DNA from: Lishizhenia sp.
Lineage (GTDB): Bacteria; Bacteroidota; Bacteroidia; Flavobacteriales_D; Crocinitomicaceae
Length of the DNA stretch: 64,000 bases
Assembly: GCA_965656535.1 (NCBI GenBank)
Contig: CBFHKX010000003.1
Location: forward strand, 101,595-165,594
Direction: 5' to 3'
Shown: positions 35,144-46,456 of the stretch, in pieces
Position numbering within the stretch: position 1 is the stretch's first letter
Layout: the number at the start of each line of letters is the position of its first letter
Translations under genes and position numbers: made by a program
The notes under the pieces: generated by a model
What the model saw: the letters and a program-made list of their open reading frames with translations, nothing else
The model's database searches: none
Told to the model about the DNA's origin: nothing

Positions 35144-35812
35144 GTGGAAATAACCGAAGAAAAAAATAAAAAAAAAGCATGGCCAACAAAAGATGTTATG
35201 CAGCAGATATATGCTTTAAATTTTTGGGGAGAAAATAATACACCATTTTATTCTGGCGAAGGTTCGCATGCAGAACAGATTGTAGCGCCTTACATAAAAG
35301 TAGTACAGTCTTTTTTAAATGAGTTTAAAGGTCAGTTATCTATTTGTGATTTGGGATGTGGAGATTTTAATATTGGTCAACAATTACTTCCGTTTACCAA
35401 GCAATATACAGCCGTAGATATAGTTCCGGAGTTAATAACCTACAATAAAAAGAAGTTTAAGTATTCTAATTTAACTTTCTCACTATTAGATATTTCTAAT
35501 GATTTATTACCCGTTGCAGATTGTGCTATTATTAGGCAAGTTTTACAACATCTATCAAATTCAGAAGTTAAGCGTATTGTTAAGAAATTAAATCAATACA
35601 AGTATATTATCTTAACTGAGCATATATCAAACGGTGATTTTGTTCCCAATATTGATATTATTTCAGGAAGAGGAATTCGCTTAAAGAAGAATAGCGGAAT
35701 TAATCTATTTGAACCGCCATTTAATTTTAAGGCAAAACATCTTAAAAAAATAGTAACTGTAAACCTAAATGGCAAGAAAGGAAGGATAGTAACATGGCTA
35801 ATTACGCTTTAA
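35144..35812 (+). CDS. Class I SAM-dependent methyltransferase
   Basis: YSGEGSH, CDLGCGDF, VDIV and RQVLQHL motifs. Confidence 0.82.
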   Translation: MEITEEKNKKKAWPTKDVMQQIYALNFWGENNTPFYSGEGSHAEQIVAPYIKVVQSFLNEFKGQLSICDLGCGDFNIGQQLLPFTKQYTAVDIVPELITYNKKKFKYSNLTFSLLDISNDLLPVADCAIIRQVLQHLSNSEVKRIVKKLNQYKYIILTEHISNGDFVPNIDIISGRGIRLKKNSGINLFEPPFNFKAKHLKKIVTVNLNGKKGRIVTWLITL

Positions 35813-37109
35813 GATACTGTCTTAAATAACTTTTTGTAAATAATTTAAAACCTGTTTTTTTTGCGTAAAATAAATAATCATTTTCAATCTTAAGTAATTG
35901 TTCAGGTTCTCTTTGAAGTAAACTAAAGATTTGATATTCAATTAGTTTATAAAAAATAAAGGTGTAGTCTTTATATGAGTCATTAAATTTAAAAGTATTG
36001 ATTAATTCAAATGATTTTTTCGCTTCTAGGAGTCGATCTTCACATAAATTCTGAAGAGAATAACCCAATAATACAATAGCGTGTGTGTTATGTCCACTCC
36101 AGTTTGTAGGTTTTAATAGCTCTTCGTAATATTCTTTAATTAATATGGCGATTTTCTTTATATCCTTTACAATTAGTAGAGCAGGAAAAATTTCAATACT
36201 AAATAAGAAAATATCGGTTTCTTTCTTGCGCAAGTACACCATTTGACTATTCCAAATTTCTTCATATTTATCAGTGTTATTCTGCTCTTTATAAAACATT
36301 AAATTATAAGCAAAGCATCTTCCTTTAAGTACAGGGTGAAAATTATTTTTAATTCTATCGATGGAAATTTCTGCTAAATTCTTATCAGCTGATAAATAAG
36401 TGTTAAATCCTAATAGTAATTCATAGAATAGTTTTTCGTGACTCTCATTTTCAGCATACTGCAATGATGATTTGATAAATTTACCATAATACCCATTCAA
36501 ATAAGAATAGTCTATAAACCAATGTAAAACATTTTCTCTGAAGCTGATTATCGGAGTTAAAACAGTAATGATTTCGTTTATAGTTGTAGAATTAAGACTA
36601 CGAAACAAAAGACAAATTTGCGCAGCAAACTTTAGTCGATTTGATTCATCAAATTGCAGTAATTTAGGATCAAAAAGTATTGGGAGCGTTTCAATTTCGT
36701 TTCTGTAGACTTTAGATTTAATGATGTTAGACAATTTCATATGAAATTGAAAGGTGTGTATTTGTGTGTGTAGCCAGTCTAAATCTTCTTGAGTTATTTT
36801 AGTGTTAAGTTCAATATTCAGTACTTTTTTCCACGCATACCATTCGAGGTCACTTGCATAGGTTTTTAAATAGGCTCCGTAATTTTTATAACCTAAATAT
36901 TGACAAAGGCTATTAATTGTTTTTCTTGAGGGGTTGGTTTGAGGCAAAAAACCAAAAAATCTTCGTAATGTATTATAGCTTATTTTTTCATTAATAGCAT
37001 ATTCAACGGCATCTTGAAATAGCTTTAAGTCTGCAACGGATGATACTGGCGCACCAAATTGCCTGTATAAATCAAGTTTTAATTGCTGAAAGTTTTCTTT
37101 GTTATACAT
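35802..37109 (-). CDS. Hypothetical protein with an N-terminal HTH-like segment and a helical C-terminal domain
   Basis: N-terminal ISYNTLRRFFGFL..PSRKTINSLCQYLGY resembles Bacteroidota XRE-like regulators. The rest is helical with no recognisable motif. Confidence 0.6.
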   Translation of the reverse strand: MYNKENFQQLKLDLYRQFGAPVSSVADLKLFQDAVEYAINEKISYNTLRRFFGFLPQTNPSRKTINSLCQYLGYKNYGAYLKTYASDLEWYAWKKVLNIELNTKITQEDLDWLHTQIHTFQFHMKLSNIIKSKVYRNEIETLPILFDPKLLQFDESNRLKFAAQICLLFRSLNSTTINEIITVLTPIISFRENVLHWFIDYSYLNGYYGKFIKSSLQYAENESHEKLFYELLLGFNTYLSADKNLAEISIDRIKNNFHPVLKGRCFAYNLMFYKEQNNTDKYEEIWNSQMVYLRKKETDIFLFSIEIFPALLIVKDIKKIAILIKEYYEELLKPTNWSGHNTHAIVLLGYSLQNLCEDRLLEAKKSFELINTFKFNDSYKDYTFIFYKLIEYQIFSLLQREPEQLLKIENDYLFYAKKTGFKLFTKSYLRQYLKA

Positions 37110-38934: not shown

Positions 38935-40893
38935 TTAATTTATTACGTATTTTAAATGCTCATAAATCATAACCATTGCAAGTGTATCTAGTTCGCAATA
39001 CTTGAGTAAAGCATTTGAAATTTCTTCTCTTTCATTCTCTTCCATATCATTAAATTGCAACTTTCCATAGGCCGTAAGAGCTACTCCACCATCAGATATG
39101 TTCTCGAGTCCTGAAATTATATTATCTTTTTGCTTTTCTGTCCAATTTGAAAATAGACTTGGAAGCTGTTTATAGGGATCTATAAAACCATCCTTTTCTT
39201 TTCTTAACCATATATGTGAATCATTGTAGTTCAAGCTAGAAAGATTTATCGAAATAATAGGCTGTGTATATTTTTCTTGTAAAAACGAACATGTGCTTAA
39301 TATTGCAGGTAATATTGCTTTAATTGAGTTAGATCCTTTTGTTAGTGGATGGTAGTAATACCGTAACATGATTTGTCTAAGATCAACGAAATTTCTTTTC
39401 GGATTCCATTTTTGAACTACATTTCCGGTTGGAGTCGCGATGTTCCTAATAAATTGAATGAGTTTATGTCTGTCTTTATAATCACTTTGTTCTAATTGTT
39501 CTTTAATTGTATTCAAAATACTGTTTTCATGAGAAGCAAATCTGAAAATTGTACCATTGTCATGATCTATTGCATCTTTTAGAGATTCGATAAATTTAAA
39601 ATTTGGGAAGTCTCCTGTTTTGTTATTTAGATACTGTGATTTGTGTGTAATTTTGCCGTTCTCGTCTATCTGGTGATGTGAAAATTGAAAAGCAACTTGT
39701 TCATAGGGTTTCATGTTTTTTGTAAATGGAATTGCCACAGCACTGGTTTCAAAATCAATAAAATGAAGTGGAAACTTCCATTTTTTCATCTCTTTACTTA
39801 ATTCTTTACAATTAATAAATGGTTGCTTATCTTCAGATACCGCTTTTTTTATTTGAATCCATCTTCTATCGATGGCAGTCAGTTGTTTGGAGGTATTTGT
39901 TGTATTGAAGTCAGCTTTATTTACAGTTTTAAGTAAGATTTTGCCTTTGTTTAAAAATTTTTGACCTCTGAAATTCCATATTTCAAAAATATTGGGTAAT
40001 TCAAATTCTTTTTCTGATATGTTATGCATTGTTTTGAAACAATTTTTAAAGCCTGAGAGCTTGCCTAATTTTTCTTCTTCTGGGTTTGTTTTAAATTCAC
40101 AGTTCTTACATGAGCTGTAGTTAGTTGTCCAATTTGGAAAAGTATTGTTTTTTATTGTTTTTTCGAATTGATTTAGTGCTTTAGAAAATGTTAGCGATCC
40201 TTTATAGGATTGTTCGTTTAATAAAATTTCTTTGATCAAATTAGAAATGTTCACTTTTGTCAGTACAGATGTTTTTATTGCAGTTTCTGGCGAAATCAGA
40301 GTTTTTATATTTTTCCTTTCTTTTCCCTTTTTAGGTAGTCTAATAAGTTGATTCAGTCCGTTAATTGTTGATTTCTTTGATTTATCAGCTAGAATAAAAT
40401 ATGACTCAATTTTTAAATGAGGCATGCAGCGTTGAATTACGTGTTTTTGAAAAGCAACATCGAAAAAATATGGCTTCCAATTACTGTAAATCTTTCCGTT
40501 CTTGCCAATAAAAGAATTTGAATTAGTTGAGTCAAATGATTTAGCTTTAACTTCTATTAGCTTTAAGGTATTGCCTTTTTTAACAATTATGTCGCTCATG
40601 ACGAACAAATTATTCATTAAGAAAGATGCTTCATATATGACTACTTCATCTTGTTTCAATAGAGTTTTGGTTTCTTCCCAAGCAGATTGGTAATCACCTC
40701 GTTGGGCTTCTAAAAAAAAACCATTAGGGTAGTGCATTCTGGCTAAGGCTTCGACTTGAAATCCACCCTCTGCCAAAGAAGCTAAGAATGAATCTTCGGA
40801 AGATCTATTAGCGTAGCGGTCATCAAAAGTATACACGATTTTATTAGGACAACTTAGACCTATTTTAAATTTGGATTTTGTAAGTACCTTCAT
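38935..40893 (-). CDS. DUF2779-domain protein: PD-(D/E)xK (Cas4/RecB-like) nuclease fused to an RNase H-like domain
   Basis: LTKSKFKIGLSCP N-terminus, SDIIVK..LIEVK, CKNCEF..C, FIDFET..PYEQVAFQFSHH, GSNSIKAILPA and LLKYCELDTLAMV. Confidence 0.82.
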   Translation of the reverse strand: MKVLTKSKFKIGLSCPNKIVYTFDDRYANRSSEDSFLASLAEGGFQVEALARMHYPNGFFLEAQRGDYQSAWEETKTLLKQDEVVIYEASFLMNNLFVMSDIIVKKGNTLKLIEVKAKSFDSTNSNSFIGKNGKIYSNWKPYFFDVAFQKHVIQRCMPHLKIESYFILADKSKKSTINGLNQLIRLPKKGKERKNIKTLISPETAIKTSVLTKVNISNLIKEILLNEQSYKGSLTFSKALNQFEKTIKNNTFPNWTTNYSSCKNCEFKTNPEEEKLGKLSGFKNCFKTMHNISEKEFELPNIFEIWNFRGQKFLNKGKILLKTVNKADFNTTNTSKQLTAIDRRWIQIKKAVSEDKQPFINCKELSKEMKKWKFPLHFIDFETSAVAIPFTKNMKPYEQVAFQFSHHQIDENGKITHKSQYLNNKTGDFPNFKFIESLKDAIDHDNGTIFRFASHENSILNTIKEQLEQSDYKDRHKLIQFIRNIATPTGNVVQKWNPKRNFVDLRQIMLRYYYHPLTKGSNSIKAILPAILSTCSFLQEKYTQPIISINLSSLNYNDSHIWLRKEKDGFIDPYKQLPSLFSNWTEKQKDNIISGLENISDGGVALTAYGKLQFNDMEENEREEISNALLKYCELDTLAMVMIYEHLKYVIN

Positions 40894-41660
40894 TGTAGTT
40901 TGTATTCGAATCCAATCAATAAATCAGAATCATAATTTTGAATATCAATATAAGGTGTGTTGTGATAACGATACAATCCTTTTAAATAGAATGAAACTTT
41001 TTCTAAATCATAGTAAAATCTAGGTTCAATAAATATTCTAAAATCATTCTTTTGTGCAGCGTTTAATTGAAAGTAAGTAACCATTAGAAATCTACATTTT
41101 TTCTTAAGGTGAAATTGAGAATAAGAGGATAGATTGAGTCTTATATTTTCAATAGTTAGTAATGAATTGTTTTTTTTTTGGTAAACCTCGTTTTCGTAGA
41201 ACACACCATAACCAATGTCAAAATAATTGTTCGATGATTTTTTTTTAAGCAGAGCTTGTCTAAAGCCAGCACCTGAAACGAGTCTTTTGTTGAGTTGAAG
41301 AGATAAGGCGTTTTGTAATTGAAAAAAAGTGTAAAAAGAATTTTTTCGAACAAATAGATTGTATCTAAGTTGTCCGCTTATATCAGAGGATATTTTATTC
41401 TTCTTTTCAGATAAAAAATCATAATTTACAAAAGCTCTTACAAGGTGATTATTTTTTTTAAAACCACTCAAAACAGTGCTATTGAATTGAAATAGATTAA
41501 TATTACCTGATTTAAAATCGCCTTCTGCATTGAGGCTAAGGAAAATACTACTGTCAATTTCCTTCATTAGAGTTTCTGTATTTATTATTGCCTGGCTAAG
41601 GGAATATTTTATAAAAAAGAAGTTGCCTAAAATAGATAGAATAAGAATGGAAACTCTCAT
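40890..41660 (-). CDS. DUF481-like outer-membrane beta-barrel protein
   Basis: Signal peptide (..YSLS/QAIINTE), alternating beta strands, terminal LIGFEYKL. ATGA and TAATG overlaps with both neighbours. Confidence 0.7.
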   Translation of the reverse strand: MRVSILILSILGNFFFIKYSLSQAIINTETLMKEIDSSIFLSLNAEGDFKSGNINLFQFNSTVLSGFKKNNHLVRAFVNYDFLSEKKNKISSDISGQLRYNLFVRKNSFYTFFQLQNALSLQLNKRLVSGAGFRQALLKKKSSNNYFDIGYGVFYENEVYQKKNNSLLTIENIRLNLSSYSQFHLKKKCRFLMVTYFQLNAAQKNDFRIFIEPRFYYDLEKVSFYLKGLYRYHNTPYIDIQNYDSDLLIGFEYKLQ

Positions 41661-41986
41661 TATCTTACTCTTTTCATTCGTTCTCTCGCTCTTTTGATAT
41701 CTTCTCGAAAACCTTTAATTTTATCACGATACGATACTATTTGGTCTTTCTCTCTTTTTATCTGTCTAGCATACGAATCCCAATCTCTCTTTTTTTGAGC
41801 CCTAATTGAATGTCTAGCTGCAGTAGAAGAAGCATTTTTAAGCTTTCTCGCGAAACGATCTGTATCTCGACTTTTTCTAATTTTAATTTTTGCAATATCT
41901 TCTTTGCAAGATGCAATTTTGGATTTTATTCTGTCAATATCTCTTTTATAGCCTTCTATTTGTCGCTTGATATATTCTTTGCTCAT
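41660..41986 (-). CDS. Small highly basic coiled-coil protein (108 aa)
   Basis: Heptad pattern (IEGYKRDIDRIKSKIASCKEDI..IKREKDQIVSYRDKIKGFREDIKR), Lys/Arg-rich. Confidence 0.7.
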   Translation of the reverse strand: MSKEYIKRQIEGYKRDIDRIKSKIASCKEDIAKIKIRKSRDTDRFARKLKNASSTAARHSIRAQKKRDWDSYARQIKREKDQIVSYRDKIKGFREDIKRARERMKRVR

Positions 41987-41997
41987 ATTTTATGTTT

Positions 41998-42750
41998 TCA
42001 TAAATTGTAAGTAATGGGGTTAGAAGCACCCCTTTTTTTCTTATGTGCAATAGATTTGTTGATATACATTGATCGAACATTTTCAGGTGCAATTTTTCCA
42101 TTAAAACCATACCCCATATAAATCTTCCCTTTTTTTCTTCCTGATTTATAAGGTCGTTCTGTTTGATACCAATGATCAACTTCAAAAACCTCTACAATTA
42201 GCCCTTTGTATTCACTTAAAACATATTTTAACTTCCCATCCCGTGGGTCAGACATTCGCCAAGTCTCTTTGGTCGCGTTGTATATTTTTTCTTCACCTGA
42301 TGCATGTTTATAACTTCCATTTATATTAATGATTACAAAATCACTAGGAATGCGGTTTAATGGAGTTGCATTATATTTTCTTATAATTTCAGAAGCACTC
42401 ATTAACCCGTTTTCAATAGAATTTATTCCACCTTGTAAATTCCCTCTTCTAAATGAACTAAAACTAGGTATGAATTTAAAGGTGTCAAGAAGTGAAGCCT
42501 CGATATTAAATGCAGTTTTTTCATTTAGTCCATGTCTAACTATAACATGTTTTATTTCTTTTCCCTTTTTGAGAAATTCTTGGATGGTATCAAGTTTTTC
42601 AGTGCCAGAATTTCCATTTTTTGCATTTTCTAAATGGTTAAAAACTCTATTTCCTTTTCCTTTTCCAACATAAAAAGGAAGATCCGTTTCAGGGTCTAGA
42701 AGCAAATACACGTAATACTGAAGTTCTTCAATAGTTTTAGGGTCAAACAT
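41998..42750 (-). CDS. LEM-3-like GIY-YIG nuclease domain protein
   Basis: YYVYLLLDPETDLPFYVGKGKGNRVFNH, IVRHGL..AFNIEASL. Confidence 0.85.
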   Translation of the reverse strand: MFDPKTIEELQYYVYLLLDPETDLPFYVGKGKGNRVFNHLENAKNGNSGTEKLDTIQEFLKKGKEIKHVIVRHGLNEKTAFNIEASLLDTFKFIPSFSSFRRGNLQGGINSIENGLMSASEIIRKYNATPLNRIPSDFVIININGSYKHASGEEKIYNATKETWRMSDPRDGKLKYVLSEYKGLIVEVFEVDHWYQTERPYKSGRKKGKIYMGYGFNGKIAPENVRSMYINKSIAHKKKRGASNPITYNL

Positions 42751-42755
42751 ATTTC

Positions 42756-43151
42756 TTATATAATGTTATCTTGAATGATTTTTTTTATCTTTTTTGCATC
42801 TCGAATAAAAAAATGCTTAGCTCTTATGCTCTCGTTTCCTTCGCTTGAGATAATTATAGCAGAACGTATAACTCCACGATCAATTTTTACATAAGAAATA
42901 CTAGAAAAGGAGAGAAGTGATCTATCTATTCCAATAAGGTATTTATTTCTTTTTTCGTAAGTTACTCCTATCTGATCTAGTATTATTTTATCTGGCGTAA
43001 GCAGATGGCCTCCTACAAAAATACTAGACGAAAACACATACCTAAAATTGCTCGCGTTACTTTGTTCTTTGGGTATTTTAACTTTATTACCGCACTTTGA
43101 ACAAAAATTGCCATCGGATATATTTAGAAATCCACAATTACTACAATACAT
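42756..43151 (-). CDS. Zinc-ribbon plus PH-like domain protein
   Basis: MYCSNCG..NFCSKCG, then a beta-rich domain (TPDKIILDQIGVTYEKR..ISYVKIDRGV..IIISS) ending in a helix. Confidence 0.7.
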   Translation of the reverse strand: MYCSNCGFLNISDGNFCSKCGNKVKIPKEQSNASNFRYVFSSSIFVGGHLLTPDKIILDQIGVTYEKRNKYLIGIDRSLLSFSSISYVKIDRGVIRSAIIISSEGNESIRAKHFFIRDAKKIKKIIQDNII

Positions 43152-43152
43152 T

Positions 43153-43512
43153 CTAATCTCTTGCAGCGTTTCCTAGCGTAAGATCGTTGTCAATTAAATG
43201 CTTCGCTGATTTATCTTTAATTTGAACTTTGACTCCAAATGTATTTTCAAATAAATCTTCCACTTCTCCAACTTTCATACTAGCTTTAATTTTTAAATCT
43301 GCTTTACTCGATGTATTCACAGATTTTGTTGTTTTTTTGTTTAGGGCAGCCAATGTTAAATCACCTTCTGCAATTCTATTTCCTTTGTAAAAAACTAATG
43401 CTAAATTAAAACTTGATTTAAAATCCTTTGATATCGTTTTTAGTTTTTTATTCGGAGCAACAGAAAACTCCGCTTTATTAAATCTGTCTTTGATGTTGTT
43501 CAGTAATCCCAT
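43153..43512 (-). CDS. Small protein with two ubiquitin-like (beta-grasp-like) repeats, paralogue 2
   Basis: Two internal repeats; aligns end to end with 43567-43872. The fold call is by eye. Confidence 0.65.
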   Translation of the reverse strand: MGLLNNIKDRFNKAEFSVAPNKKLKTISKDFKSSFNLALVFYKGNRIAEGDLTLAALNKKTTKSVNTSSKADLKIKASMKVGEVEDLFENTFGVKVQIKDKSAKHLIDNDLTLGNAARD

Positions 43513-43526
43513 TGTTTTATTTTAAT

Positions 43527-43559
43527 TTATTGAGCCCAGTTGAAATTTGGGCTCAATAA
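43527..43559. other. Perfect 12-bp inverted repeat between the two paralogues
   Basis: ttattgagccca-N9-tgggctcaataa. Confidence 0.8.
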
Positions 43560-43566
43560 TATATGT

Positions 43567-43872
43567 TTATAATTTTCCTGCTTGAGTCAATGTCATTGAG
43601 TTATCAGCCAATTTACTATCATCGGCGTTAGAGATTTGAACTTTTATACCAAAAGTTTCTTTAAAATAACGTTCAACATTTTCTACTCTACTTCTTGCTC
43701 CTAATTCAAGAGATCCACCTGGGTCGTTTGTTTTAGATAAGTCAGTAATTTTCATTTTGTCATCAGCAAATTTTGCTCCTTTGTACATTCTGATGTTACA
43801 GTTAAACTCTTTTTCAAACTGTTTTTTGATACTGTTTACTGTACTTGCTTTGGTTACTTTAATAGTCGCCAT
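43567..43872 (-). CDS. Small protein with two ubiquitin-like (beta-grasp-like) repeats, paralogue 1
   Basis: IKVTKASTVNSIKKQFEKEFN..YKG..ADDKMKI / LELGARSRVENVERYFKETFGIKVQI..ADNSMTL. Confidence 0.65.
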   Translation of the reverse strand: MATIKVTKASTVNSIKKQFEKEFNCNIRMYKGAKFADDKMKITDLSKTNDPGGSLELGARSRVENVERYFKETFGIKVQISNADDSKLADNSMTLTQAGKL

Positions 43873-43938
43873 GTATTTTGTTTTAAATTTTGTCTACTTC
43901 TTTTTAGGGTAGTGTTTCGACTTATTTCTACCGATTTG

Positions 43939-45747
43939 TTAATTTGTTATTCCTGATGTAATATCGTCTAACATAGATTTATACCTTTCGCCTAATTCAC
44001 TATATATATTATAGTCTATTACAAGGTCTTTTTGGTCTGATATAAAAAGATTCTCACTTTCTTCAAGTCCATATTTAGATAAAATAAGTTGATATATTTC
44101 GTTCACTTTACCAGTATTGCTTTTTACCCAAATTTTCATTCCCATTGCTTTTTTAGATGGGTTAGAACAATAAATAAGTTGTTGATTTCCTCGCCCTATT
44201 CGAGTTTCATCATTGAATGAAGTACCGGTTTTGGCAAATGAAATTCTATATTTATTTGGTTGTTCTGTTTGCTTGTTACTCAAAGGGTTCCATAGATTTC
44301 CATAATTAATAACAGCTTGATCTGGATAGCCAGCTTCGGATAATTGAAGCAGTTTTGTTTCTACTCCATCAAAAATTGTTTTGTTGCCAACTTTTTGAAC
44401 TGCTTGCTTGGTTTCCACATCATCTTCTACACTTGTAATAGATGCAAAAGCCATCGCGTTTTCGAGTTCTTCCTCCAATGAGTCTTTATATTTATCTCTT
44501 AATAGGTTCAATAGTTCTAAGATCGCGAATGCCCTTGATTTTAGGTATGAATCGGTTTGGCAAGCTCCCCATGTAACTTGTTCCCACTCTTCATCAATTA
44601 GTTCGGATTCACCAAACTTTTTAATTTTTTCTTGAATTTCATCCCACTCGACTCCAAATTTGTTCCCGAAGCCTTTTGTCCATTGAGTAAAATTTGGACT
44701 TTGGGTTAGTAACCTGAAAATTTTCGGATAAGAAATTTGAATTCCTAATACTGCAAATAGCATGAAATCTTCTCCCTTAGGTTGTTCTTCATCAACCTCT
44801 ATTTCTCTTAAGTGATTAATTAGACTAAAAGAGTTTAGGTATCTTTTAAGACTTCGCGGGTTGTAACCAATACTAAAACGAACCGCTTTCGCGTATAGAT
44901 CTTTTTCATCTTCATTTATTTTAATTCCTAGTTCATGTAATTTTTCTACTAAGAAATTTTCGATGTCATAAGTTCCTATTGGCATAGAAAAAGGAACCTG
45001 TATAATTTTGTCAAAGAAGGATCTAAACTCCCTTTCATTTTCTTCTGTTTTAGGTCCAAACTTACTTTCTAATCCCTTTACAACTACGTCATAGTCGATG
45101 GCAAGTATAAAAACACAATTTGGAATATCAAATATATTTTTTAGTGCTTCTAACACCTCTACAGCGTCTCCTGGTGGTATACGATCTAAGTCATCAACAA
45201 AAAATACTACTTTTTTTACTGGGTTTTTTTCATCATTAATCAAATCTTTTATAAGGTCGCTGATAAGTGCTTTAATTTCAGCAATTTCTGCCGTATTTTT
45301 TTGTTTAACTTCTCCTTGTGCTGCATTCTGAACATCTACACCTGTCTGCTTGGCTACAACTTGGTTCGCTAAACCTCCTAGAAATTTTGCTGCAGATTTA
45401 AATTTTGCTTTACTTTCATCTTTTAAAGTCCAAATACCTCTTTCTTCGCAGGAAATTTTTAATTTTTCCAACATTCCTCTTAGTACACCTGGCGTTGTTT
45501 CATTTGCACCACGAAACATACTGTATTCCCAAGTGTTCACCCACGAACATGCAATATTATTTTTATTGAAATCTTCTAAAAGAAGAGACATCAGTGAGGT
45601 TTTTCCTGTACCCCATTCACCTTGTAAACCCACAGTTATAGGTGTATCACTAGATATAATAAAATTAGAGAGTGCTGCGCTATACTTCTCTACCTTTAAT
45701 AGATCTTGAGATTTTGTTGATATTGGCTTATCTGTAATTGACCCCAT
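43939..45747 (-). CDS. KAP family P-loop NTPase with an uncharacterised C-terminal domain
   Basis: VGLQGEWGTGKTSLM (Walker A), VNTWEY, VFFVDDLDR (Walker B), FFDKIIQVPFSMP and NPRSLKRYLN. Confidence 0.9.
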   Translation of the reverse strand: MGSITDKPISTKSQDLLKVEKYSAALSNFIISSDTPITVGLQGEWGTGKTSLMSLLLEDFNKNNIACSWVNTWEYSMFRGANETTPGVLRGMLEKLKISCEERGIWTLKDESKAKFKSAAKFLGGLANQVVAKQTGVDVQNAAQGEVKQKNTAEIAEIKALISDLIKDLINDEKNPVKKVVFFVDDLDRIPPGDAVEVLEALKNIFDIPNCVFILAIDYDVVVKGLESKFGPKTEENEREFRSFFDKIIQVPFSMPIGTYDIENFLVEKLHELGIKINEDEKDLYAKAVRFSIGYNPRSLKRYLNSFSLINHLREIEVDEEQPKGEDFMLFAVLGIQISYPKIFRLLTQSPNFTQWTKGFGNKFGVEWDEIQEKIKKFGESELIDEEWEQVTWGACQTDSYLKSRAFAILELLNLLRDKYKDSLEEELENAMAFASITSVEDDVETKQAVQKVGNKTIFDGVETKLLQLSEAGYPDQAVINYGNLWNPLSNKQTEQPNKYRISFAKTGTSFNDETRIGRGNQQLIYCSNPSKKAMGMKIWVKSNTGKVNEIYQLILSKYGLEESENLFISDQKDLVIDYNIYSELGERYKSMLDDITSGITN

Positions 45748-46261: not shown

Positions 46262-46339
46262 TGGCGGTCTGGACGGGACTCGAACCCGCGACCCCATGCG
46301 TGACAGGCATGTATTCTAACCAAGCTGAACTACCAGACC
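46262..46339 (-). tRNA. tRNA-Asp(GTC), copy 2
   Basis: GGTCTGG/CCAGACC acceptor stem, CATGC-CTGTCAC-GCATG anticodon arm, TTCGAGT T-loop, encoded CCA. Confidence 0.97.
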
Positions 46340-46378
46340 GTTTGTATAATTTTTTATACACGTTTAACTTCGTGTCCT

Positions 46379-46456
46379 TGGCGGTCTGGACGGGACTCGA
46401 ACCCGCGACCCCATGCGTGACAGGCATGTATTCTAACCAAGCTGAACTACCAGACC
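46379..46456 (-). tRNA. tRNA-Asp(GTC), copy 1
   Basis: Identical 78-nt cloverleaf; -7 element caaaatta at 46486-46493 upstream. Confidence 0.97.

Follow-up and report, generated by a model that had tools for sequence, protein, structure and literature searches.

An unnamed two-unit bacterial domain, probably ubiquitin-like, in a gene pair beside a KAP NTPase of Lishizhenia sp.

Eukaryotic adaptors of the Rad23 and parkin type carry an N-terminal, non-conjugated ubiquitin-like (UBL) handle that is followed by a linker and variable functional regions. Another type of adaptor is reportedly all-helical: Kaur, Iyer, Burroughs and Aravind, in eLife in 2020, are said to have described Death-like effector-associated adaptor domains on both the NTPase and the effector. 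Here we analyzed a stretch of 64,000 nucleotides from Lishizhenia sp. (contig CBFHKX010000003.1 of assembly GCA_965656535.1, positions 101,595 to 165,594 of the forward strand; hereafter, the window), in which a preliminary description made from the letters alone had pointed out two small paralogous genes, here called A and B, next to a gene for a KAP NTPase. Each of the two proteins contains one copy of a module of about 95 amino acids (aa) in two units, which constitutes an unnamed, widespread bacterial domain family. We propose, with a probability of roughly 0.45, that A and B are non-enzymatic docking (adaptor) proteins that bridge or regulate partners encoded in their gene cluster in an anti-phage context.

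The module would correspond to the handle of the Rad23/parkin-type proteins, as an N-terminal, non-conjugated element before variable regions, and the non-conjugated N-terminal UBL of eukaryotic adaptors may be its closest functional analogy. Unlike that handle, the module is bacterial, consists of a doubled half-size unit and implies no proteasome-like receptor. A and B resemble the tandem ubiquitin-like proteins (ISG15, linear di-ubiquitin, FAT10 and OASL) in having two putatively ubiquitin-like units per chain and share with them the (F/Y)-x-G...D..T-L stretch of β3-β4. These proteins were also the best structural matches of the A and B models, at sub-threshold values (E ≥ 3e-3; template modeling (TM) score, about 0.33). 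In contrast to them, the units of A and B comprise 45-50 aa, not about 76, and are without the first and last strands. Further, A and B differ from conjugated modifiers (ubiquitin, ISG15 and bacterial Ubls of the Bil/Bub type) in that they have no Gly-Gly tail and no E1 or JAB gene nearby. In their systems logic, the effector-associated adaptors come closest, since here too a small non-catalytic domain could connect a range of proteins with a central NTPase in mosaic conflict loci; however, the module is alpha/beta and is not on the KAP protein, and none of the relatives examined had it fused to an NTPase or enzyme.

The two genes and their parts are as follows (coordinates are those of the window).
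43567..43872, minus strand: gene A, an open reading frame (ORF) of 101 aa with one two-unit module, clade A (clade support, 100/99)
43723..43872, minus strand: A unit 1 (aa 1-50), from DSSP on the model and repeat statistics
43570..43722, minus strand: A unit 2 (aa 51-101), from the model and repeat statistics
43153..43512, minus strand: gene B, 119 aa, an N-terminal helix and one two-unit module, clade B/B-long (support, 96/89)
43474..43512, minus strand: N-terminal, possibly amphipathic helix of B (aa 1-13, GLLNNIKDRFNK), conserved in the B-type clade
43327..43473, minus strand: B unit 1 (aa 14-62), from repeat statistics and the model
43156..43326, minus strand: B unit 2 (aa 63-119), from repeat statistics and the model
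43527..43559, no strand assigned: hairpin in the 54-nt spacer between A and B, with 12 pairs as RNA and 13 in the DNA scan

A and B are genuine genes. Homologues at E ≤ 0.01 numbered 172 for A and 967 for B; among the matches listed (120 per gene), length was near-constant, identity was 64-92% and the sources were mostly marine Flavobacteriaceae. The listed matches of A (120 of its 172) were 73-90% identical. The peptides quoted in the preliminary description were present in the two minus-strand ORFs, and BLASTP confirmed that A and B are paralogous (E = 2e-14, 30% identity over 105 columns). The four related units of about 45 aa that it had seen by eye were recovered by local alignment of the units (about 45-50 aa) against 500 shuffles. 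The scores of A1-A2 (z = 7.5), A1-B1 (z = 7.8) and A2-B2 (z = 13.5) were each reached by none of the 500 shuffles, and the cross pairs were weaker (A1-B2, z = 2.7; A2-B1, z = 2.9; B1-B2, z = 2.4). The hydrophobic moment of the N-terminal helix of B was 0.51, compared with a mean of 0.27 and a 95th percentile of 0.52 in shuffles, which is only suggestive of an amphipathic character. The hairpin between the two genes, folded as RNA of the mRNA strand, had an energy of -17.3 kcal/mol (z = -4.6), and none of 200 shuffles folded as well. There was no U-run on its 3' side in the mRNA strand; the hairpin could set the A:B expression ratio or serve as a protein-binding site.

In the AlphaFold2 model of A (predicted local distance difference test (pLDDT), 88.3; predicted TM score, 0.75), DSSP assigned to unit 1 a strand (residues 3-7), a helix (12-23), a strand (25-31), a short strand (34-35) and a turn-helix (42-45), and to unit 2 a strand (54-58), a helix (63-74), a strand (77-82) and a helix (95-100). 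The AlphaFold model of B (pLDDT, 75.2) had the same order of elements and a helix at residues 3-12. Each unit was modeled as strand-helix-strand-short strand-3(10), that is, about three of the five β-grasp strands. The best 50 Foldseek matches in the PDB were ubiquitin-like without exception for both models, and the alignments paired each unit with one ubiquitin domain; a predicted fold unrelated to β-grasp, which would have refuted the preliminary description, did not emerge from this search. The matches included ISG15, linear di-ubiquitin, FAT10, the tandem UBL of OASL, ATG8/GABARAP and elongin B. Superposition of single units on ubiquitin-like domains of viral models covered 42-48 columns, at 2.1-2.8 Å. 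The weak Pfam matches of 40 aligned members were enriched in the ubiquitin clan and included five of its families (E = 0.008-0.19, below cut-offs), and one distant relative matched Ubiquitin_TPR1 at 7e-7 somewhere along its length. Positions Y30, G32, A36 and T94-L95 were near-invariant in three family alignments, as were F19 and F23 in helix 1. By eye, the Y-x-G...[F/L]-A-D-D-x-x-T-L of the module parallels F45-A-G...L50-E-D-G-R-T55-L56 of ubiquitin, and the β3-β4 signature of the ubiquitin-like superfamily (aromatic-x-G, acidic loop, T-L) was present. As modeled, the unit is probably a trimmed ubiquitin-like core without the first and last strands of ubiquitin. We consider it likely that the module is homologous to ubiquitin, given signals that are sub-threshold but consistent.

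Several results weigh against this homology and would fit convergence, in which case the module would be a new small α/β fold of two β-α-β units, possibly with one shared sheet. No Foldseek match reached E ≤ 1e-3 (best values, 3e-3 and 5e-2), global TM scores in the PDB were 0.3-0.37 and the root-mean-square deviation over the full length was 13-21 Å. A PDB profile search ranked ubiquitin-like proteins first, but at values short of significance: E was 0.074 for polyubiquitin, 0.27 for the BAG6 UBL and 0.35 for a ubiquitin variant, to which A unit 2 aligned over ubiquitin residues 17-65. Alignment to ubiquitin by hhalign gave a probability of 1.6% (E = 0.031) over the 27 columns that the preliminary description had noted. 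PDB sequence searches with two profiles gave nothing significant, and neither by sequence nor by profile was the module significantly similar to any family of the ubiquitin clan. Two of the five strands of ubiquitin are missing from each unit. Among viral models (BFVD), the top matches were small unnamed phage proteins (TM score, about 0.5), not ubiquitin; ubiquitin-like domains came next. On the other side, three independent weak signals (Foldseek, PDB profile and Pfam clan) agree on one superfamily. The single Ubiquitin_TPR1 match may also speak against convergence. So does the position of Y-x-G...ADD..TL, which falls on the part of ubiquitin-like domains that is conserved best, and ferredoxin-like or other folds were absent from the structural matches. 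We regard convergence as somewhat unlikely. The likeness to the ubiquitin core that had been noted by eye was backed by these searches, but at sub-threshold values and for about three of the five strands. A ferredoxin-like fold made of two β-α-β units had also been considered and was dropped because no ferredoxin-like or ACT-like structure was among the Foldseek matches.

A and B are not conjugated modifiers, because they have no Gly-Gly tail, no E1 was present in the window and no JAB was present in the genome. Neither A (...TQAGKL) nor B (...GNAARD) ends in Gly or Gly-Gly, and both chains end in a helix. In this genome (99.97% complete), the sole ThiF match above the family cut-off was on another contig (C1), and Prok-JAB was found nowhere. 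A weak, sub-threshold ThiF match was detected on the contig of the window, outside the window. E1, E2 and JAB Pfam domains were absent from eight proteins of the gene run (38935-45747); the search for E2 covered these eight proteins. The preliminary description had likewise read the pair as non-conjugated, and this was borne out.

When A and B were scanned against Pfam, NCBIfam, PADLOC and PHROGs, no match reached or approached the cut-offs. When 1.8 billion representatives were searched exhaustively with phmmer, 447 clusters (50% identity) were obtained at E ≤ 1e-3. In the best 150 of these 447 clusters, the module was N-terminal in 142 cases. A tail of more than 80 aa followed it in 93 of the 142 (95 when two non-N-terminal cases are included). 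It was thus seen as a free module (about 100-155 aa), as tandem copies (two in P0245, four in P0241) or with a tail. We excised 101 flanking stretches (the 95 C-terminal tails and six N-terminal leaders). They barely clustered (largest cluster, 14) and were acidic, with a median D+E of 23.5% versus a K+R of 8.4%. Where the domains of the tails are known, they are binding repeats (DUF4116, LRR, HEAT/LRV, ankyrin, WG, DUF1566 and TM2); the majority of the listed multidomain relatives have no Pfam domain on record. No NTPase or enzyme domain was fused to the module in 235 entries (115 and 120, some proteins being shared).

In a profile search, the module was found in 97 of 401 genomes of the family to which the window belongs (17 of 29 genera). 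Of 390 further genomes, taken from across the phylum, 18 had it as well. Campylobacterota, Proteobacteria and Nitrospinota also carry it. A narrower profile recovered the module in Helicobacteraceae, Sulfurimonas, Crenothrix, Alphaproteobacteria and Gammaproteobacteria, where its identity to the query was 55-85%; in a Nitrospinota genome, the identity was 41%. The tails of the seven recovered non-Bacteroidota proteins, which do not include the Nitrospinota protein, were unrelated to one another. In the genome of the window, A and B are the only module genes, and the module was absent from all three genomes of the same genus; A and B are therefore accessory genes. A 130-aa ORF that adjoins a clade-D module gene (L032:10079-10471; L and G numbers denote loci and genomes of the comparison) looks like a very divergent member (hidden Markov model (HMM) E = 0.002), and the profile-based family counts are therefore lower bounds. 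Thus, a strongly conserved domain of about 95 residues, with hundreds of clusters in at least four phyla, has gone unnamed in family databases.

The proposed docking role can be put as follows. In other bacteria, the module would be a conserved N-terminal handle for hypervariable tails that are acidic or consist of repeats (LRR, HEAT, ankyrin or DUF4116). In Flavobacteriaceae, the module occurs free and stands first in mosaic clusters with links to the envelope and to defence, usually as two genes that belong to different clades. A and B would be a co-inherited, non-enzymatic, non-conjugated cytoplasmic pair, and their hetero-complex would bridge or regulate the soluble KAP NTPase, a Zn-ribbon protein and a CMoRE-type GIY-YIG nuclease. 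In other loci, the partner of the module would be an envelope anchor. We infer on these grounds an adaptor role in anti-phage defence. A broader version, in which a cross-phylum 'double half-ubiquitin' docking domain tethers hypervariable recognition tails or free paired subunits to a conserved cellular hub, with an envelope-anchored platform around a KAP NTPase as this hub in Flavobacteriaceae, appears rather unlikely to us. If that version were true, the module would be a bacterial counterpart of the non-conjugated ubiquitin-like adaptor domains in immunity. If the module is a ubiquitin-derived docking handle, the logic of non-conjugated ubiquitin-like adaptors would extend to bacterial conflict systems. 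As such a handle, it would also be a practical marker for new defence cargo, such as KAP NTPases, TerB, tail-anchored OmpA and CMoRE-type nucleases with their accessory genes.

Some features of the family do not favor a docking role in defence. The isoelectric points (pI) of its members range from 4.9 to 9.7, which implies no single type of ligand. In one genus, a B-long singleton lies between YggS-like (pyridoxal phosphate-binding) and M16-peptidase-like genes, as identified by eye, with no defence genes, and some copies outside Bacteroidota adjoin metabolic genes. When phage and plasmid collections were searched by tblastn with two family members, no match was obtained; mobility is therefore deduced solely from the patchy distribution. 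Nucleic-acid binding, as read from charge, was considered and rejected because of the same range of pI.

The neighbors of A and B that recur in related loci, or that form part of the gene run in the window, are the following.
43939..45747, minus strand: KAP-family P-loop NTPase, 602 aa, soluble, a facultative partner (PF07693, 2.4e-38)
42756..43151, minus strand: Zn-ribbon protein, 131 aa, which starts 1 nt after the B stop and is present in 8 of 11 architectures
41998..42750, minus strand: GIY-YIG nuclease of the PD-T4-3 (CMoRE) type (PADLOC PD-T4-3, 1e-51), present in 8 of 11 architectures
41660..41986, minus strand: basic coiled-coil protein, 108 aa, a recurrent partner
35802..37109, minus strand: HTHc1, a helix-turn-helix (HTH)-like and helical protein, 435 aa, at the far end of the gene run about 6 kb from A and B

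We distinguished eleven architectures around the clade-A orthologues, which are 78-83% identical to A. B was present in ten of them, and the eleventh contained a truncated B. The Zn-ribbon protein, the PD-T4-3-type nuclease and the basic coiled coil were each found in eight, as was an upstream HTH-like protein of 413-430 aa, and a KAP gene (65-77% identical to that of the window) was found in five. A-B is thus the constant unit and its companions vary, since B occurs in 10 of 11 architectures while the partners differ. L121/L122 have KAP-A-B as an isolated unit; in L001, L127 and the window, the cluster begins with it. A-B is followed by the Zn-ribbon protein, nuclease, coiled coil, DUF2779 and DUF481, with no KAP gene, in L004, L120 (and 13 similar places) and L123-L126. 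It is also without KAP in L119 and L131, and without the nuclease in L001, L121 and L131. The window holds both KAP-A-B and the nuclease block, with gaps of 0-11 nt from B onward. Across the family, paired module genes came nearly always from different, well-supported clades. Six loci have a clade-C gene followed, after a gap of 2-6 nt, by a gene of 154-157 aa, and five of these second genes are B-long. Hetero-pairing fits because A and B are co-inherited and paired genes come from different clades; A and B most likely form a hetero-complex, as far as can be judged from these sequences, in keeping with the earlier suggestion that they are perhaps a heterodimer. Basic repeat proteins (AERKRxAEANKRERE; 82 and 118 aa) are encoded directly upstream of A orthologues at L001:5702-5950 and L131:4594-4950.

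PD-T4-3/CMoRE is a type IV restriction endonuclease that constitutes a single-gene system (PMC12923530). The nuclease encoded two genes downstream of B gave an end-to-end match to it (PADLOC PDLC04031, 1e-51, residues 2-249 of 250; Pfam LEM-3_GIY-YIG, 1e-13) and was the most frequent companion of A-B. Unlike the single-gene system, however, it lies here inside a conserved multi-gene block headed by A-B. A and B might therefore regulate or target the CMoRE-type nuclease within the block that runs from A-B to DUF2779 and DUF481, the KAP gene being merely an inserted neighbor. The block recurs in several other architectures, its gaps in the window are short, and the Zn-ribbon protein and the nuclease are each found in more of the architectures (8/11) than KAP (5/11). 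In a gammaproteobacterial locus, moreover, a module-fusion gene is followed by a nuclease of the PvuRts1I/SRA type. Nevertheless, the PD-T4-3/CMoRE gene is functional by itself in E. coli (PMC12923530), A-B occurs without the nuclease in the three loci named above, and other clades of the family have quite different neighbors. We hold this explanation to be distinctly unlikely. The context of the block raises the question, for which it is not evidence, of whether the 'single-gene' PD-T4-3 uses accessory proteins in Flavobacteriaceae.

The Zn-ribbon gene precedes the nuclease gene with a 5-nt gap in the window and overlaps it in L123-L126, and the gene for the 108-aa coiled coil comes after the nuclease. 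A PDB search with the Zn-ribbon protein gave no informative match. The block ends with DUF2779 and DUF481 in the window, L004, L120 and L123-L126, and with two DUF4230 genes in L127. The gammaproteobacterial fusion gene and the nuclease that follows it, which targets modified cytosine (L117:796-2702), represent a second case of the module beside a modified-cytosine enzyme; with two cases, coincidence is possible.

The gene upstream of A encodes a KAP NTPase, as had been described; it aligned to positions 2-291 of the 293 of the PF07693 profile. No transmembrane segment was present in the protein, the module was not found within it by HMM, and a PDB search with its C-terminal half gave no informative match. 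Like the KAP genes of anti-phage systems, it has the full P-loop domain, and its best PADLOC matches were PifA, PDC-S20 and QatA. Unlike in PifA, QatA and PDC-S20, the matches covered the NTPase domain only, and the NCBIfam QatA score was 89 bits compared with a cut-off of 600. QatB, QatC and QatD were absent from the seven proteins of the run that were searched with PADLOC. Further, PifA, QatABCD and PDC-S20 have not been described with ubiquitin-like small partners.

To relate the two families, the module hits (about 140 places, about 124 loci) were cross-referenced with the PF07693 hits (about 105 places) in the same 401 genomes, "nearby" being defined as within 2.5 kb. A KAP gene was nearby at 11 of the approximately 124 module loci, in five genera, whereas roughly 0.07 would be expected by chance. 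All eleven encoded KAPs of the window KAP's own subfamily. Conversely, a module gene was nearby at 10 of the 19 other loci of this subfamily versus none of about 85 other KAP places. About 91% of the module loci had no KAP gene (about 9% had one), and no module gene was near KAPs with 67% identity (G380 and G373) or 54-55% identity (G102, G363 and G334) to that of the window. The link between KAP and the module is thus real but optional in both directions, and KAP recurs as a partner but does not define the module, which is promiscuous.

These counts bear on the earlier suggestion that A and B serve as an adaptor or decoy for the NTPase, or, in its strictest form, that they are dedicated to KAP in a three-gene KAP-A-B system. 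The association with one subfamily, the excess over chance, and the loci that consist of or are headed by KAP-A-B are consistent with such a system. It is contradicted by the A-B pairs without KAP (L004, L119, L120 and 13 similar places, L123-L126 and L131), by the small share of module loci with KAP, by the five genomes in which KAP orthologues have no module gene nearby, and by the lack of any fusion of the module to an NTPase among the 235 entries. We judge a dedicated KAP system to be quite improbable. The suggestion was therefore overstated as a general role, but the survey of homologue neighborhoods that had been called for did reveal a link to NTPases and defence loci.

After the 67%-identical KAPs of G380 and G373, two 81-aa ORFs occupy the position of A and B (L086:7050-7543 and L087:9914-10407). 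They were tried as family members and rejected (HMM E = 0.1 and 0.7); one of them carries a ubiquitin-helix-like PNVDKIKQKLGEKTGI stretch. The genome of the window encodes a second KAP NTPase on another contig (C4:134357-135316), with an open frame of 1053 aa that is much longer than the KAP of the window. A short way upstream of the KAP gene of the window are two tandem tRNA-Asp(GTC) genes (46262-46456), which are consistent with an island insertion site.

The preferred reading of A-B as docking proteins also has to be weighed against the HTHc1 protein, for which no Pfam or PDB match was obtained. In a tally of 36 loci, an HTHc1 relative was adjacent to a module gene in 14 and within three genes in 19; this tally is partly biased, as 16 of the loci were chosen via KAP, and related genomes in the neighborhood counts are not independent. 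In most clade-A architectures, the relative lies divergently upstream of A. A and B could thus be regulatory partners (co- or anti-regulators) of HTHc1 that control expression of the island. However, HTHc1 lies about 6 kb away in the window, at the other end of the gene run, and modules outside Bacteroidota have no such neighbor. Further, HTHc1 has no recognized domain, so that even DNA binding is an assumption, and the bias of the sample applies. Such a regulatory partnership seems to us very improbable. Members of the HTHc1 family (365-435 aa) flank the clusters, frequently at both ends and with more than one copy in a locus (L001, L004, L029-L035, L079-L094 and L119-L127). The family may mark a recombination hotspot or may be the regulator of the island. 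An assignment of these neighbors as integrases was rejected, since they lack a recombinase domain and consist of an HTH-like N-terminal part and an otherwise helical chain.

Module genes usually adjoin an HTHc1 relative and head mosaic clusters, and other clades of the module family have quite different neighbors from those of clade A. Recurrent members of the clusters are a tail-anchored protein, a TerB protein, a UDG-like protein, DUF481 barrels and an ion channel of the voltage-gated type; further members are three small membrane proteins, a Bro-N protein and highly basic repeat proteins. In L127 and L129, the tail-anchored protein, here called c5, has a periplasmic OmpA domain and is encoded directly after A. 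The c5 protein (L127:5324-6469, L129:5385-6494 and L079:8274-8906) combines a cytoplasmic domain (about 180 aa) with a single transmembrane helix; the peptidoglycan-binding OmpA domain is present in some genomes only. Because c5 directly follows a module gene in many loci, it is a candidate envelope anchor for the module.

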